64,000 nt of DNA from Carcharhinus amblyrhynchos (taxonomy: Eukaryota). The DNA is taken from positions 22,444,001-22,508,000 of the forward strand of contig OZ336881.1 of NCBI GenBank assembly GCA_965287045.1. Direction: 5' to 3'. A program made the translations under genes and the position numbers. The stretch's first letter is position 1, and every line of letters begins with the position of its first letter. Below the pieces are notes generated by a model, which did not search any database, was not told the origin of the DNA, and saw only the letters and a list, made by a program, of their open reading frames with translations. Shown here in pieces: positions 4,644-64,000 of the stretch.

Positions 4644-5458
4644 TTCAGCTTAGGGTGCTGTTAAAAACGCTGTGTTCCACTTCATTCAACAAGGTGCAAC
4701 TTTTTTGAGTGTTTTGATAGCAATATACTTGATGTAAAAGTGGAAGCTCTCATCAGTTCGATGATTTCTAACTGACTGCAATCTGCAGGGACTTTAAGAG
4801 CGCATTCTATGAGAAGTGCAGAGTGACTAACAGCAGCTTCTGGATTTCCATAATTAACTGTGCATGTCAACCTCCAGAAGTTGTCATCAGTTTCCACTGA
4901 GTAATAATTACTGCTGACAGTTCAGTTGCTATTACTACTGAAAACTCTAAGTCCAAATATTCAGCCCTCCCTCATGTATTTTGGGTCTCCTGAGAAACGC
5001 ACGACCTAAGCCTGAATGCTCACGATTTTTTTGAAGTTGTCCCACCAGTCAATTCTGGAGGGGACCCCAAAGGTGGTTGCATAAAGACTGAGAATTTGAT
5101 AGGTAGCCCTAAATGAGAAAACTACAAAAATAACTAATTGTTTCATTTTACTTGTAAATTTATTTCTAATATATTAACCTTTTTGCTTATTTACTACAAA
5201 TAGCCAACAGTAAAAAATTATCAATTCAAGTTTATAAAAAGTTCAGTGTAACATGCTGCAGTGATAGCATTCAGCTGCAAATTTATAAAACTGAGGAGCA
5301 TGGAGATTTTGTGCCCATAATCATTTTCAGAATTCAGGCTTTACTCCAGTGTTTTGTATATTAATATTCTTTGCACAGAATACTACTGAAAGTTTGCAAC
5401 AATGGGTTTAGGGATTGACTGCAATGATTTTTCATTGAACTCCTTTCTGGTTTTCCAG

Positions 5459-7398: not shown

Positions 7399-7540
7399 AC
7401 GTGGATATGCTGGTGTTGGACAGGGGCAAGCACAGTAAGAAGTCTCACAACACCAGGTTAAAGTCCAGGTTAAGCAAAAAGCTAGTGCCAAATAAACCTG
7501 TTGGACTTTAACCTGCTGCTGTGAGACTTCTTACTGTGCC
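7399..7540. mobile_element. miniature fold-back Penelope-like pLTR insertion
   Basis: PLE tail (gtggatatgctggtgttggacaggggcaagcacagtaag), then gcacagtaagaagtctcacaacaccaggttaaagtcca and its inverted copy tggactttaacctgctgctgtgagacttcttactgtgc. Confidence 0.8.
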
Positions 7541-48629: not shown

Positions 48630-49506
48630 GCCACGACAGATCAGCCATGATCTTACTGAATGGCAGGGCAGGCTCGAAGGGCTAGATGGCCTACTCCTGC
48701 TCCTATTTCTTATGTTATTATGTTCTTATTACAGCACAGAAGACCAATTAAAGACACATCGCACGACCTTTCAGACATACAACACATTTGGAGCACTGCT
48801 CAACAAGAAAAAAAAGAGCTCCTGGCCAGAGAGCCAAAGATCACATCCTGAACCCCCAACCCCCCGAAGCACACTGTTGGAATAGCCATCAGAATGTACA
48901 TAAAATAGTGATTCTGAATTTACAGGATAACAGGCAAGGAAAAACAAAACAAAATTCCCAAGTCTCTGTGCTCAACAAATGCCCTTATCAGGATAAAAAA
49001 AATCACATAATTAGGAGCAAAATCACAAGGGAACAAAGTTCAGAATTAACAATGAACTCAACGTTACAAGCCATCCATGGAGTTAGAAAAGGCCAAAAAC
49101 ATGACCAGATTGTCAAGGAACATGCAGAACTTCATTTAAGTCGCCACACTTCCATCATGCCACAATCCCACAGGCCAGATGAGCATAAGTCTATGCCCCA
49201 GTGGATGGGAGCCCACCATGCCTAGCCACCTCCAACTCCTCTTGGCGAGCATGAAGGTCAAGATATTGCAAGATATGGTGGGGTCTTCAGCCAACCCAGG
49301 TCTTGAAAATCTGTCCTAGGGTGCAGAATACATCTTCCACATTTTTGCGTCTCAATGCGGTCTTCATCTTGGCATCAATAGCACCACCTCTGCATGGGTC
49401 TGCTTATCAGTGACATTGTGTGGAGATGCCAGTGTTGGACTGGGGTAAACAGTAAGAAGTCTGACAACACCAGGTTTAAGTCCAACTGATTTATTTGAAG
49501 GTAAAC

Positions 49507-49542
49507 TTGCAAGCTTTCAGGGTTTGCCCCTTCATCAGGCAA
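49507..49542 (-). ncRNA. minimal type I hammerhead ribozyme (PLE pLTR)
   Basis: ttgc-CTGATGA-a-gggg-caaa-ccct-GAAA-gc-TT-gcaa. Confidence 0.75.
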
Positions 49543-51810
49543 ATGGAGAGTTCTGGCCTCAGACAGAGCATAGAACAGCACAGACAGTTCACAGATTACT
49601 GATTAGAATGTGAATCTTGACACCTAACCTGCTATTCAAGTCTTAAGTGGCCAAAAAGAGCATTAAGCTCAGGTTAAAGAGATGTGTATTGTCTCCAGAC
49701 AGTACAGTAAGTGAGATTTAGCAAACCCAGGCAAGTCATGGGGGTTACAAATAGTGCAACACGAACCCAAGATCCCTGTTGAGACTGTCCTCATGTGTGC
49801 GGAACTTGGCTATCAGTCTCTACGCTGTCATGTGTTGTGAAGGCCGCCTTGGAGAACGCTTACTTGTAGGTCAGAGGCCGAATGCCCGTAACCACTGAAG
49901 TGTTCACCAACAGGAAGGGAACAGTCTTGCCTAGTGATTGTCGAGCGACGTTCATTCATCCATTGTCGTAGCATCTGCATGGTCTCCCCAATGTACCGTG
50001 CTTCGGGACATCCTTTCCTGCAGCGTTTTAGGTAGACAACGTTGGCCAAGTTGCAAGAGTATGTACCGTGTACCTGGTGGATGGTATTCTCACGTGAGAT
50101 GATGTCATCCATGTTGATGATCCAGCAGGTCTTGCAGGAGGTTGCCGTGGCAGGGTTATGTGGTGTTGTGGTCACTGTTCTCCTGAAGGCTGGGTAGTTT
50201 GCTGCGAACAATGGTCTGGTTGAGGTTGTGCGGTTGTCTGATGGCAAGAAGTGGGGGCGTGGGGATGGCCCTGGCGAGATGTTCGTCTTCAATGATATGT
50301 TGAAGACTCGAGAAGATGTCGTAGCTTCTCCGCTCCGAGGAATTACTGGACGAAGGGTGCTCTGTCCACTGTGTCCTGTGTTTGTCTTCTGAGGTCGGTG
50401 CGGTTTTTCGCTGTGGTGCATCGGAACTGTCGATTGATCAGTCGAGCGCCATATCCTGTTCTTATGAGGGCATCTTTCAGCATCCGGAGGTGTCTGTCAC
50501 AATCCTCCTCATCTGAGCAGATCCTGTATATACGGAGGGCTTGTACAAGGAAGGTGACAGTCCTTGATGGAGATGCATGTGTCCAAGAATGCAACCGATT
50601 CTGGAGAATAGTCCATGGTGAGTCTGATGGTGGGGTGGAACTTGTTGATATATACTTGTTTCAGAGAACAATCACTGACGGTCACCTCAGCACCTCACTG
50701 TACCGCAAGCCCACTGACCACCTCACAATGCTCCACTTCTCCAGCTTTCACCCAAAACACGTTGAAGAAGCCATCTCCTATGGACAAGCCCTCCGTATAC
50801 ACAGGATCTGCTCAGATGAGAAGGATCGTGACAGAACTTCCAGTCACTGGAAGATGCCCTCATAAGAGCAGGATATGGCGCTCAACTCATTGATCGACAG
50901 TTCTGATGCGCCACAGCGAAAAACCGCACCGACCTCCTCAGAAGACAAACACGGGACACGGTGGACAGAGTACCCTTCATCGTCCAGTACTTCCCCGGAG
51001 CAGAGAAGCTACAATATCTTCTCTGGAGTCTTCAACATATCACTGATGAAGACGAGCATCTCGCCATGGCCATCCCCACACCCCCACTTCTTGCCTTCAG
51101 ACAACTGCACAACCTCAAAACAGACCACTGTTTGCAAACTACCCAGACTACAGGAGAACAGTGACCACAACACCACACAACCCTGCCACAGCAACCTCTC
51201 CAAGACATGCTGGATCATCAACATGGATGACATCATTGCACGTGAGAATACCATCCACCAGGTACACAGCACATACTCTTGCAACTCGGCCAACGTTGTC
51301 TACCTAATACGCTGCAGGAAAGGATGTCCCGAAGCACGGTACATTGGGGACACCATGCAGACGCTACGACAACGGATGAATGAACATCGCTCGACAATCA
51401 CCAGGCAAGACTGTTCCCTTCCTGTTGGTGAACACTCCAGTGGTCATAGGCATTCGGCCTCTGACCTTCGGGTAAGCATTCTCCAAGGCGGCCTTCACAA
51501 CAGCGCAGAGTTGCTGAGCAGAGACTGATAGCCAAGTTCCGCACACAAGGACGGTCTCAACAGGGATCTTGGGTTCATGTTGTACTATCTGTAACCCCCA
51601 TGACTTGCCTGGGTTTGCTAAACCTCACTTACCGTACTGTCTGGAGACAATACACATCTCTTTAACCTGGGCTTAATGCTCCTTCCACTCACATTGTTAG
51701 CCACTTTAAGACTTGAATAGCAGGTTAGGTGTAAAGATTCACATTCTAAATCAGTAATCTGTAAACTGTCTGTGCTGTTACATGCTCTGTCTGAGGCCAG
51801 AACTCTCCAT

Positions 51811-51846
51811 TCGCCTGACAAAGGGGCAAACCCCGAAAGCTTGCGA
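51811..51846 (+). ncRNA. minimal hammerhead ribozyme with core mutation (CTGACAA)
   Basis: tcgc-CTGACAA-a-gggg-caaa-cccc-GAAA-gc-TT-gcga. Confidence 0.65.
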
Positions 51847-52781
51847 GTTTACCATCAAATCGGTTGGACTTAAACCTGGTGTTATCAGTGACATTGCCAC
51901 TGTGAACCAGGCTCCACCCAAGTCAGTTCCAACCCCATCTTGCAAACAAGGAACGTCTTCAATTTAATGCAGCTCTCCACAGTCAAGAGTTAACCACGAT
52001 CTTTCAAAAATGTTGTACAGATTATGCAACTACAGATCATGCATAAGGGTTAAAGATGAATAAGTCCTGAGCTCACGAAAATGCAGCCGTTCCCATGCTC
52101 ACATCATATGACCCCCCCACATAAACATTTACAATAGGGATCTATAAATTTTCCCTTTATGTAATCTAAGTAAATATTTAGCTATCACACTTTATTGGTG
52201 AACTAAGATCATTTTTCCAAACATTTTGCATATTCTTCTTCTCCGTCAGTGGAATTTCTACTCCCAAAGTAAGATATTGAACACAATAATAATTCAGAAT
52301 ATTGAGCATCACGTAAGATTCAATTTATTTATTGAATCTTTTATCTCCTTTACAGTTTTCACGAGCACATTACCCCTCAAAGCCGAAGGTTGCACTTGAT
52401 AACAGCAGTTAACAGTCATAACATCTGGCAGAAGTTGTCTCAGCATTTGCAATGTGCACAACCTTCCACTATGAAAGGAATAAGAAAGCTATTTATTGTT
52501 TGAAAGTTAGAAACTAAATGGGGTAGAGAAAATTGGTAATCTGGCAGGGAGGATATATCATGTTGTAAAAGTAGCAAAGCAAGTTCATAACACCATAACA
52601 GGATTGATTTTGAAAGGACATGAATACATAAGCACGGATTCATATAGAATTATGATTAGATCATACTTTCAATAGCTATGGTAATGCTCAGGGTTGTAGA
52701 AATAGGGTGGGGGTGGAAATGGGTAAGATGCTCTTTCGGAGTGTGGGTGCAGACTCGATTGGCCAAATGGCCTCCTTCTCG

Positions 52782-58967: not shown

Positions 58968-59821
58968 CTGTAAGAACAGTAATTACACACGATATAGAAA
59001 TCAAATGTACAAGCATATTTCAGATTAAATTTGTCAGAATAATTATGTTGATACCTCATTATTCTGTGCATTGTAGCTAGAATTGAAAACATCCAGAATT
59101 TTAGTAGTCTTGGCTCCCAGAATTTTACAACAATATAAACTGCCCACGTTATTTTAATTATTTCCTCGTTTTAAGATCTGGATGCACTAACCACAAAAGT
59201 AAAAATCAGGTAAAGCTTGATGCTATAAAAATAATGAAAGGAAAAAACTAAAGATTCTGTATCTAAATGTGTGTAACATTTGAAACACAACAGATGAACT
59301 GATAGCACAAATTGAAATTGATAAGTGAAACTTGAATAAAAGTACAGGAGTTTTTGAAATAAAAGGAAAATACACCCAGCTGGAAGAAACCTGTGCTTCA
59401 CACTTAAAAAGGAGAAATCTGGAAAGGCGGCAGATATTGGCTGCAGTTAAACAAGTTCAGGAATAAAAAAGAAAAAGTCTCAAGAACAAGTGTGAAAAAC
59501 AAATTGCAGATCTTCCAATGTGAAGAAAGTCTGCCAGGAACCATCCCTACACTAAGGGACAAGGGGCAGTGAGGGTTGACAGTTTTTAAAACAAGAGTAG
59601 TCCTCTACCTGCTAAAAAAAAGTTAAGTTGAAAGAAGATGGTTCTGAAATGGACAGCATAGACTGCAAGCAAAATTAACAAAACACTACATTAAAAAAAA
59701 GACTATTCAGGCAACATAAACATAAAAAAGCTGCAGAAATCTTCCACCAACGCAAGAGATTTTGCATAGTTTGCAAGGATCAAGGAGGAGGAGCTGCAGG
59801 TTCCTGCCAAAACTCCATAAG

Positions 59822-60346
59822 GAGGAAGTCAAAAACTTGATGCCTGTGTCAATATGCACGATCTTCTTGGAGACCCTCTCTACTCGGAGCCAGCAGTTTG
59901 CAGTGTCAATAGTTGTCACAATGTGGAGATACCAGCGTTGGACTGGGGTAAACACAGTAAGACAACTTTCACACTGTCAACCTTTTTTCAAACTGCCACA
60001 GCTGCTGTTTCACACTGCCTGTGCTTCTGGAGTTTTGATGTGGAGATGCCGGCGTTGGACTGGGGCAAACACAGTAAGAAGTCAAAACTTGATGTCTGTG
60101 TCGAAAGGCACGATCTTCTTGGAGATCCTCTCCATTTGGAACTGGCAGTTTGCTGTCGATAGTAGTCTTGATGTGGAGATGTCAGCGTTGGCCTGGGTTA
60201 AAACACAGTAAGCAGACTTCACTTGCCGCTGCAAACTGCCAGCTCCAAGTGCAGAGGATCTCCAAGATGATCATGCACATCGACACAGACATCAAGTTTT
60301 GACTTTTTACTGTGTTTACCCCAGTCCAACGCCAGCATCTCCACAT
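59822..60346. mobile_element. complex reiterated PLE-terminus insertion (4 x 41-nt tail)
   Basis: Tail copies at 59921, 60038 and 60171 (+) and 60306-60346 (-); 14-bp TSD caaaactcca(t/g)aag at 59808-59821 / 60347-60360. Confidence 0.85.
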
Positions 60347-61378
60347 CAAAACTCCAGAAGCACAGACAGTGTGAAACAGCAGCTGTGGCAGTTTAAAAAA
60401 AGGTTGACGGTGTGAAAGTGGTAATGCATTTAAAGTTGTACAGCATTTTATGAAACCACCAGGAGGAACAAAGAACAAGGGACAGAAAAATCAGAGACGA
60501 TCACAGATGGAGGGCAAAGCTAAGAATAGAGGGCAAGTCCATAAAGGGGGTCTGTAAGCAATGCCAAGACCTCAAGAAAAAGATAATGCTGGATCTCAGA
60601 GGAGGTAATAAGAAACCCTGGAAAGGAGACAAGCCAGACAGAGGGCCCCAAAGTGACAGAAAAATCAAGCAGAACTCAGCAGGGATCATGACATGGAACT
60701 CAAGAACAGCCAAGGAAATTCCATATAATGGATGCCATCAGTTTTGTGATCAGTAACAAAACTGCTGTTCTGAGTGAAGCGCCTCAAGAATAACAATCCA
60801 TGGCACTCACATAGAACATCTTGTATCATCCACTGCGCAACTCACTATACTCTTGAAGTAGAAATTAGACCAGAGCTATTACTGGGAATTCTTTCGAAAT
60901 CTAATTGAATCATTGAACTACCAGTTGAGTGGTAAACACAAATAAGCTCAAGAAATTGGCATTCTACAGAGAGGCAGAAACCTTGTGTTTGAGGGTGCTG
61001 AAGAGGACTTAGCAATGGACAAAACCCAAAGAGAGGACATAACAGTTGGAACAAATTAGCAATCGAGAAGAATTGTCTAACAAATATAATGAGGAGGAAG
61101 GAATGTTCAACTTAGAAAGAGAGTTTGTTACAACATAATGACTATCAGTTCTCTGAAAACATGCAAAACACACAAAGGAAAAAAATCATCAAATGTTATC
61201 AGAAGGGTATCCACCTTGGAAGAAACTCAGAAATGGATAAACACATTGCAAAAGCGGATGCATAGAATAAAGAATGACTCATGTCTAAGCACAGGATTGG
61301 TTGAAGCAGAAGAGGGAATGAAATGATTGGAAAATGAAGTCACTCAGCCGTTGAAATTATGTTAGAGAATTAGACAAG

Positions 61379-61611
61379 ATGTGGAGACGCCAGCATTGGA
61401 CTGGGGCAAACATAGAAAGAAGTCTCACAACACCAGGTTAAAGTCCAATAGGTTTGCTTGGTAGCAAAAGCCATTAGCTTTCGCAGTGCTCGTTGTTTGT
61501 GAACTGAAATCCCACTCACCTGATGAAGGAGCAGTGAGCGCTCTGAAAGCTAGTGGCTTTTGCTACCAAATAACCCTATTGTCTTTCACCTGGTGTTGTG
61601 AGACTTCTTAC
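61379..61611. mobile_element. short fold-back PLE pLTR insertion
   Basis: 41-nt tail plus about 65-bp inverted arms; TSD agaatta(g/a)acaa at 61366-61377 / 61612-61623. Confidence 0.88.
61517..61555 (+). ncRNA. minimal type I hammerhead ribozyme
   Basis: cac-CTGATGA-a-ggagc-agtgagc-gctct-GAAA-gc-TA-gtg; intact core and palindromic AGCT stem III. Confidence 0.8.
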
Positions 61612-64000
61612 AGAATTAAACAAAGCAGTAATTCAAGGCAAAGAAGGTACTGAGATTACGTGCCAGAATAAGATTGTTCACACTAATAGAAAGCACAAGA
61701 ACCAATCATAAAATGGTCATTGATAAAGATGCCAAATAGAAAAACTGGAAAGAGAAGAAACTTTAGCACACGATCTACGCACCAGAAACAGAGTATCACG
61801 ACTATTTCCTTCACAAGTTACAGGCCGGGATTGTGAATGAACTTTCAAGACCTAAGACTGTGTTGATCTGTGATGATGGTATTTGCATGCATTGGAGAGC
61901 AAGGTATTTGACAGAGAAAACGATCAATGGAGAATTGGAGATTTGTACCACCTGCAGAATAAAGTACATCATGCTTGGTCAACGCACGGTCTAGGACCGA
62001 ACTGAGAAAGCAGCAAGCAAGGATATGGTGCCTGTCTCTTTAAGATAATACGGAAGTGGATCACCTGACTTGAAGGACCAATGGGAACTGAGGGAGAGTG
62101 ACCACTCCAGAGGATGGAGTCTGCTCTCGGGCAGAATCATCTAGCAGCCCATGTAGTTAATAAGATTGGAGCACAACTCCAAGCGAGTCTAGAGCTCCAT
62201 TCCTACACCTAATTTCTCTCAGGGAATACCTTTTGTTCCTAACAAAGTCCAAAATCTCTTTATAATGCCAGAGTGTGCCATGACATAACATGAGACAACA
62301 CCCAAGCTCAATTCCATCTTCATTTCATGTCCATACGAACGCAGAGTCTAAGGTTTTACTCAAAGACCAGAAATGCTGAAGTGTCCTCTCCTTCACTGCC
62401 ACCGGTCTGAAACCAGCTATAATAACAGATACCAGGGATCAAATTTGGGACCACATAGTGCAACCACCCACAAAATCATTCAAGGAGCTGACACATCAGT
62501 TTGATTTATTCATAGAAACTTCTAGTGTGCAAACCAATATTCCTGTACTTCAGTGATTATCCAAATAATGCAATTTGACAAAGCAAAGTTCCCCCTAGAT
62601 AAACCCTAATAAATGTATATTGGTGCCAGGAAAGAATAGTAGTGAAAGAGTTTTGTGTTACTTATACCTCAATAAAGCTAATGATTCACTGATGCATTTA
62701 GACAGAATCTGCATCATAGCATTGCAGTGTTTGGCAGAAGAAATATGGATTGCTAAATACTACTTGCATGAAGGCCAGATTTCTTTAAAATACCATTGAG
62801 AGATTAATGTACAATTAGACAGTTTATGAATATTTGTTCAAAGCAGACAAAGCCTTGAAGGCAGCCTATTTTAACGCTGTGATGAATGCCTATATTGACA
62901 GTCAACTAAGGGAAAAAACTTTAATTCCACTTAAATTCTATTTCTAAATTCTATCCTCATTTAAAATTGACATCATACCCAATAGTGATAATTTTCAGAA
63001 TACATTACTTTGGTCTTGATTTTAAGATATTATAACATGTCCATGTCCAAGGCAGAGAAAAAAAGTGTCCTACTCACACCAAGCTCCTTGTTGCACACAT
63101 AACCGTTAAGAGTTTCCAGTTGTATCATTCGTTTTGATTAATAAATGTCCTAGTTTACAGGAGATTGGAACTTGAAGTGGGAGAAGTATCCCAAGATATA
63201 ATTGTAAGTAGTTTAAAGAGGGTGTTTGAAAGTGGGGGGAAAGTGGTGGTAAAGAAGATTGATGACAAAAGTTCCTGAGTGCAAGGGCAGAGAAGCTTGG
63301 GCATTCAAGTTGACAGGGGAAGTTGGAAGAAACATGATGGACCAATTCAGAAGAGACTGGTGTATACACCAGTACATATCGTTAGCAAAAATTGTGTATA
63401 TCTAGCCAGTTAATATAGTACCAATTTTACCTCTTCACTCAAATTTTTTTTCAGTTTATCATAGCATCCCATGCCTCAATTAGTACTGAAATTCACCATT
63501 GTAATCCATGTCAAATTGATGTTACCTCAGGAAATTCAATTTGGAATTTGATTTGGCATTCGTGGTGGTAGAACTAGTTTTCCTTGCATTTTTTTCTCCT
63601 TCAGTGTTTGCTGACTACTGTTCTGCCTCAACCAAGGATCATGTTCTTCGAGAGAGTCCAGAAAGCAAGTGTTAACAAATTATTTGACTGTATTGGGCAA
63701 TATGAACAATTCCAATCCTGTCTTTGACCAATGCCCATGCACACATCAACTTTCCAACAACAATTATTGTATGAGTGGAAACACAAGTTCATTTTGTGCT
63801 CCAGTGGTACTGTTTACCGCAGCGAACCACACATTCTTAAATTTAAAGCCAAGAAAATCATCTAGTCTTAACAGGATCAGCAACAGTAACCGGAAACCTT
63901 ACATAGCAAAGCCTGGGTCTAAGACTGAATACTTATCTGCTTGGCCATGGGAAGAAAGAGACCAAAGAGTCAAACTGCACAAAAGTCAATTCCGAATTGT

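Follow-up and report, generated by a model that had tools for sequence, protein, structure and literature searches.

A Penelope-like insertion carrying a 192-nt inverted copy of its own target junction

A single Penelope-like insertion, bounded by one target site duplication (TSD), lies near the end of the window (the whole 64,000-nt stretch of Carcharhinus amblyrhynchos DNA that was analyzed) and includes, in inverted orientation, a 192-nt duplicate of its own target junction. We attribute this duplicate, with somewhat more confidence than doubt, to snap-back DNA synthesis during integration. A sequence-only reading of the same DNA had taken the locus for a CRISPR-looking array of reiterated Penelope tails with captured flanking DNA, fossilized from telomerase-like synthesis. 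The element, the single event, and the capture were borne out by the analysis; the array was not.

Structure of the insertion

The locus is composed of modules designated A, P, and B (Table 1). The final 41 nt of the pseudo-LTR, in reverse complement, make up P; this sequence stands directly before the ATG and again at the element 3' end. A is the reverse complement of codons 1 to 30 of the open reading frame (ORF) that carries the reverse transcriptase (RT) and GIY-YIG domains, the same sequence opening the ORF in loci L030 and L136. The proposed order and coordinates of the modules held, except that the center measures 18 nt (60213-60230) rather than 15 nt. The ~90-nt A module likewise lies where it had been placed; it is no spacer, being the ORF start that natively adjoins P, and this adjacency is present at many other places (in a search that scored 40 of 5475 candidates).

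Table 1. Features of the locus, in window coordinates
Feature	Coordinates	Strand	Remarks
Left TSD, 14 nt	59808-59821	+	13/14 identical to 60347-60360; run X17 has G at 59818, giving 14/14
Tail-less inverted element end	59822-59830	-	~-38 to -45 upstream of ORF start; mutated in the assembly
A1	59831-59920	-	Element ORF codons 1-30, joined to position -45 by a locus-specific jump
P1	59921-59961	-	Last 41 nt of pseudo-LTR (tail region), natively adjoining ORF start
B	59962-60037	-	Right TSD and 62 nt of adjoining flank, copied in inverted orientation
P2, aagtc, and first 70 nt of A2	60038-60153	-	Remainder of the inverted right-junction copy (192 nt)
P2	60038-60078		Followed by aagtc
A2	60084-60170		
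End of A2, P3, and probably a decayed aagtc	60154-60217	-	No remaining partner in right arm; run X17 has A at 60213
P3	60171-60212		X17 has A at 60213
Center filler, ~13 nt	60218-60230	none	Spanned by contigs of X1, X2, and X17
Right arm in element sense	60231-60346	+	ORF +19 to +90, jump, -45 to 0 with tail
Partial rcA (A3)	60231-60300		70 of the 90 nt of A
rcP (P4)	60306-60346		
Right TSD (60347-60360) with the flank duplicated in B	60347-60422	+	

B represents true capture of target DNA, as had been claimed: it differs from the reverse complement of 60347-60422 at 4 of 76 positions, and its local alignment score is 66 to the flank versus at most 10.5 for the best of five element references, with no element match. 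B, P2, and A2 are not the separate modules that they were taken for; a repeat finder joins 59962-60153 to 60231-60422 as one inverted repeat of 192 nt with 15 differences (92% complementary). When the locus is read from the right with the ATG boundary as 0, it runs from 0 to -45, jumps, continues from +91 to +19, and crosses the filler; the opposite-sense part then runs from -46 to +91, from -45 to 0, through the TSD and flank, from -41 to +89, and from -45 to -38 up to the other TSD. The inverted copy of target DNA is contiguous with the insertion junction and the TSD is kept, as in a fold-back event, and the locus folds at a z of -33 versus 20 shuffles. The 13-nt center filler showed no convincing match to the element or to the locus, and its source was not found.

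The insert is a 525-nt dead scar without evident function, and an Rfam scan returned only weak chance hairpin matches. Its copies of P are spaced 117 and 133 nt apart with the fourth inverted, and the intervening DNA measures 76 to 92 nt. P has three matches in the window at no more than 3 mismatches versus none in 100 shuffles, and P-like matches were also found, as had been reported, at the ends of the inserts at 7.4, 49.4, and 61.4 kb.

The element and its family

The locus is a member of the endonuclease-bearing (EN+) Penelope-like elements. The ORF opened by A matches RVT_1 with an E value of 9e-6 in L030 and 8e-11 in L136 (the latter above the cutoff) and GIY-YIG with E values of 0.0013 and 0.0002, respectively, both just under the Pfam cutoff; the locus itself holds only codons 1 to 30 of this ORF. 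The pseudo-LTR is seen in L136, where 5068-5246 repeats 2042-2221 at 89.5%. That copy (L136:2042-10000) is full length at ~3.2 kb and contains stops; it has a 5' pseudo-LTR, and a LINE-like ORF breaks up its long inverted partner. No hammerhead was matched by Rfam in 59000-62000, where the part of the pseudo-LTR at this locus is one without the hammerhead region; core-like hammerhead words were seen by eye at 61.5 kb, in the 61.4-kb insert, and were not recognized by Rfam.

The family is abundant, with 2,285 exact copies of the 41-mer P and 9,844 of a 33-mer in the assembly. The annotated set comprised 163 clusters in 133 loci plus the window, with a callable TSD in 98, after nine duplicate loci were left out ahead of the counts. 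Segmental copies of L037 (L038 to L040) and a locus with a false TSD (L020) were also left out of the flank-capture and arm-allele counts, and L038 to L040 were left out of the TSD count as well. Among the TSD-flanked insertions not chosen by A, 63 of 74 were automatically scored as having one tail end and one inverted tail-less end, with a median TSD of 12 nt (range, 8 to 15). The present locus is among the other 11, its left end being mutated, and it shows the same one-sided tail, with the right end at 0 and the left end at ~-38. The number of P copies within 600 nt was one in 126 and two in 2 of the 129 clusters not chosen by A and was four only here.

Further members of the family lie in the window. 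A 2.46-kb inverted insertion at 49414-51888 has a 15-nt TSD, arms 88% alike, and a GIY-YIG remnant, and short hairpin-type insertions are present at 61371-61611 (with a 12-nt TSD) and at 7401-7538. Elsewhere, segmental duplications on C1 and C22 account for identical insertions with identical TSDs at several nearby places (L037 to L040 and L185 to L186). The TSDs of L017, L063, L122, and L127 contain a word like AATAAAT(G/C)CTG, which hints at a repeated preferred target.

Support from reads and related genomes

The structure of the locus is real, as confirmed by overlapping Logan contigs of short reads, no single one of which spans the whole locus. Contigs of X1 match 59300-59865, 60124-60327, and 60335-61000 without differences, as do contigs of X2, another sample, at 59937-60048 (P1-B-P2) and 60124-60327. 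Contigs of X5, another organism, cover 59300-59873, 59845-59950, and 59933-60048, and the junctions of B are spanned by contigs of both X2 (with no differences) and X5. In X17, a relative, contigs cover both outer junctions and the center, the 14-bp TSD is perfect, and differences at 59822 and 59824 yield taagaagtc, the standard second end of the family.

The empty site that the sequence-only reading had suggested looking for was found in a more distant relative, X12, in which a 583-nt contig joins 59821 to 60358 with 8 unmatched letters between them and no insert. This site is likely orthologous, given the flank variants common to X12 and X17, which is short of proof. Following window position 60565, 21 extra nt are present in X5, X16, X17, and X8, and therefore a small deletion occurred in the lineage of the assembly.

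Jump junctions and the template of the second arm

At no more than 1 mismatch, the 2.9-Gb assembly contains two instances of the aagtc/aaaac junction with P ahead of it, both at this locus, where a third copy of aagtc/aaaac stands after the left TSD. The jump junction is therefore present in all three arms of the locus and confined to it, in keeping with the claim of one event within one TSD. Nine other loci (L003, L004, L008, L029, L133, L134, L137, L141, and L172) have one-off backward jumps from the pseudo-LTR to the ORF start that are present, mirrored, in each of their two arms; these loci were picked mostly by the A query and hence give no rate. All three junctions that were checked for uniqueness in the assembly (this locus, L137, and L009) are confined to their own loci. 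Across 81 insertions, the arms of one insertion agree at 465 of 520 diagnostic subfamily-allele comparisons (89%) versus 51 ± 4% in 1,000 shuffles. The sharing of alleles and the mirrored one-off jumps indicate that both arms came from one molecule, whether cDNA or RNA.

The best case of true reiteration was seen in L009:1265-1677, where two successive backward jumps (-61 to +85) contain an identical T-rich filler of 12 nt, the junction being unique in the assembly; this repeat could reflect a short oligo(A)-ended RNA passed end to end twice, or slippage. In L149, L150, L153, L156, L157, L159, L161, and L162 (around 1500-1700), the arm with the tail begins again at the tail boundary (-23 to -33) and includes no flank there, which suggests that this boundary is a preferred reentry point. 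Stop points near -60 to -70 are a general hot spot in the family, and the idea that a short arm ending at the jump point proves a fixed RNA end was dropped for that reason.

Recurrence of flank capture

Inverted copies of flanking DNA were found at five other loci in addition to this one, the pattern counts being lower bounds. Among 94 TSD-flanked clusters and 65 other clusters, inner flank copies were present at this locus, at L113 (inverted), and, in a finer scan, at L105 (direct); four matches among the 65 clusters without a called TSD were judged to be boundary repeats and were not counted. A search for P with another tail-less start after it yielded 20 matches, 4 of them with an inverted flank copy of ~25 to 55 nt (L144, which is L113; L152; L154; and L163), and in these four the flank was captured from the end opposite that at this locus. 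The pattern of a tail-less start followed by P gave 29 matches and one clear case, L167, whose geometry is that of the present locus; L169 and L180 were not counted as flank capture. From these counts, flank read-through would occur in the family at a rough rate of ~0.05% to 1%. The direct copy in L105:3973-4120 consists of 4 nt of flank, the TSD, and the start of P and lies at a 4-nt microhomology. Inner direct TSD-like copies are also present in L145, L148, and L151 (around 1500-1950), some arms seemingly belonging to different subfamilies; these may be stacked insertions at one site or two-RNA events and were left unclassified.

Mechanism and timing of the duplication

B-P2-A2 is contiguous across the junction between flank and element and could not have been templated by element RNA; its template was therefore DNA already joined to the target. 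We infer the order of the steps, their timing, and the enzyme as follows. On the minus strand, the right target end would prime reverse transcription at the tail, and after ~46 nt the RT would jump back to ORF position +90 and copy A and P again; the right arm (60231-60346) would be this first cDNA, read from the right flank. The cDNA 3' end would then fold back and be extended along the cDNA itself. The inverted arm of the family normally stops ~35 nt before the target junction, and here the snap-back strand would have overrun the tail, the TSD, and 62 nt of flank. Its end would reanneal near the fold, copy P-A-junction again, stop at the normal tail-less boundary, and be joined as a second copy to the left target end, with ~60 nt of the first strand lost at the center of the hairpin. 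The data fit copying of DNA by the RT or by a host polymerase.

This snap-back sequence of events is supported by ends that conform to the family standard and by X17, which restores the left end and the TSD. Several points count against it. The right arm lacks ORF +18 to 0 and the second P, both of which are present in both copies, so that a further loss must be assumed; the switch from flank to P1 has a microhomology of 0 to 2 nt, none clear; and fold-back can originate from either end, which suits independent priming of both ends.

As regards timing, counts by eye gave 9 private non-CpG changes between A2+P2 and A3+P4 and at least 7 more between A1-P1 and A2-P3, with none shared in either comparison. 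The absence of shared changes versus ~16 private ones (against the family majority) favors an origin at insertion over a later event at a uniformly random time, by a likelihood ratio of ~6 to 10. A2 and A3 differ at 8 of 70 positions, the A1 pairs differ at 11 of 70, and all shared CpG changes fit the tree expected of a later duplication, which lean slightly to a later event. In L154, a non-CpG variant is common to the inner and outer copies and absent from the other arm; this suits a later event or a second template and counts against an origin at insertion.

The geometry can also be reached by other routes. It is conceivable, if doubtful, that a single short (or circular) RNA served as template from both target ends, with one cDNA primed at the tail and the other 38 nt further on, each making the same jump from -45 to +90, and that the tail-primed cDNA alone folded back, overran the flank, and was end-joined to the other; this twin priming shares its core, a DNA-templated capture during insertion, with the snap-back explanation. 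In the anole, a Penelope element cuts both strands and extends each of them, starting at two neighboring RNA sites between which the tail lies (PMC11167929); captures begin from either end, and the L009 junction is repeated with its filler as if one RNA had been passed end to end repeatedly. Twin priming demands, however, that two polymerases make an identical jump; stops at the family hot spot of -60 to -70 do not prove fixed RNA ends, and the L162 repeat stops at -59 whereas its other arm reaches -103. We think it unlikely that an ordinary inverted insertion (A1-P1/rcA3-rcP4) formed a hairpin at which a host replication or repair fork later switched template at the center, copied flank-P-A backward, and returned by arm homology. 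Such a switch would give the same geometry without later loss from the center, and the slightly closer A2/A3 pair, the shared CpG changes that it predicts, and the L154 variant agree with it, but it is opposed by the lack of shared non-CpG changes and by the inner copy already being present in another organism (X5).

The proposal that the element RT copied the RNA end over and over in the manner of telomerase, with switches to target DNA supplying the spacers, now appears very improbable. Other members of the family do show backward recopying of short stretches of the element (L009, L178, and L191, with restarts near -30 in eight loci), and one backward recopy of an RNA segment around P survives from the original proposal; telomerase-like reiteration finds no support here. 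The P copies come from two natural contexts, the tail at the target junction and the position beside the ORF start, each of them duplicated in units of 130 to 190 nt that are partly inverted, and one unit includes flank DNA, such that at least that copy was templated by DNA. P2 lies inside this DNA-templated duplicate, A-P is native, the 117- and 133-nt spacing and the inverted fourth copy are not those of a head-to-tail run, and the P-(5 to 90 nt)-P pattern was found only at this locus (exact motifs, a lower bound). An assembly artifact, a propagated composite family, or stacked independent insertions could be entertained in that no contig covers the entire locus, and we regard all of these as scarcely credible. 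Junctions were recovered from a second sample and from relatives, and the arms are 8% diverged. A propagated unit was rejected, the whole unit matching only itself (with 40 of 5475 candidates scored) and the junction being unique; independent insertions were likewise set aside, with one TSD around the whole and none seen around each P.

Snap-back on target-primed cDNA might even be the normal route to the second arm in this family, stopping as a rule at the tail boundary, with the present locus as a read-through and the element RT performing the whole series; we offer this tentatively. If true, one mechanism would account for the partial tandems as well as for the inverted arm and the one-sided tail. 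The series of RT activities, which is no firmer, would lead from a backward jump on a short RNA through fold-back and displacement into the target DNA to reannealing and a second round.

Comparison with known systems

The completion of Penelope-like integration and the origin of inverted arms with a one-sided tail are described as unresolved (PMC8557442, PMC11167929). For inverted arms that extend into target DNA, if for no others, the template must have been DNA attached to the target, and one-off junctions mirrored between arms allow the template to be tested from the genome alone. A single locus is of modest value; it is worth more as one of a small set of mechanistic fossils that constrain the last step of Penelope integration.

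The layout of EN+ Penelope-like elements, with an inverted 5'-truncated copy and a one-sided tail of 30 to 40 bp, has been published (PMC8557442, PMC3846280, and PMC11167929), and the locus agrees with it in its ORF of RT and C-terminal GIY-YIG, pseudo-LTR, partial tandem, inverted arm, one-sided tail, and TSD. What it has in addition is an inner copy, in inverted orientation, of the flank together with the target junction. The tail has been tied to two RT start sites, with both strands extended (PMC11167929), and self-priming on an antisense template is proposed in PMC3846280; to judge by the present locus, that template would be first-strand cDNA attached to the target rather than antisense RNA. 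In the open-access literature that was searched, no description of flank read-through in Penelope elements was found.

For L1, fold-back inverted duplications of target DNA of 52 to 220 bp are reported for 3 of ~1200 insertions (0.3%) in PMC10191854, and inverted target duplication is also reported in 10.1101/2024.12.14.628481. The likeness consists of a short inverted target duplicate beside an insertion made by target-primed reverse transcription (TPRT), a retained TSD, and a similar size and rough rarity; in L1, however, the duplicate is mostly on the reciprocal end and contains target DNA only, whereas here it runs through element cDNA and the priming junction. For R2, PMC11371274 describes snap-back synthesis that is primed by the cDNA 3' end and proceeds along the cDNA or nearby target DNA before joining. 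Priming by the cDNA 3' end of synthesis back along the cDNA would be common to both systems, but it yields a minority class of junctions in engineered R2 insertions, whereas the inverted arm is the rule in this Penelope family (63/74) and passes the priming junction here.

The locus resembles the products of telomerase and CRISPR systems in having several copies of a short sequence at near-even spacing. Repeat addition by telomerase produces head-to-tail copies of one short RNA template by realignment. A CRISPR array consists of direct repeats in one orientation, separated by unique foreign spacers of even length, with cas genes nearby. In contrast, the copies at this locus are not head-to-tail units of one template, their orientation is mixed with one repeat inverted, and what had been read as CRISPR-like spacers are repeated element ORF and local flank. 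The kinship of the RT of Penelope-like elements with telomerase is stated in PMC8557442. The locus is a rare accident of a kind that recurs in this genome and a variant on known fold-back and snap-back events.
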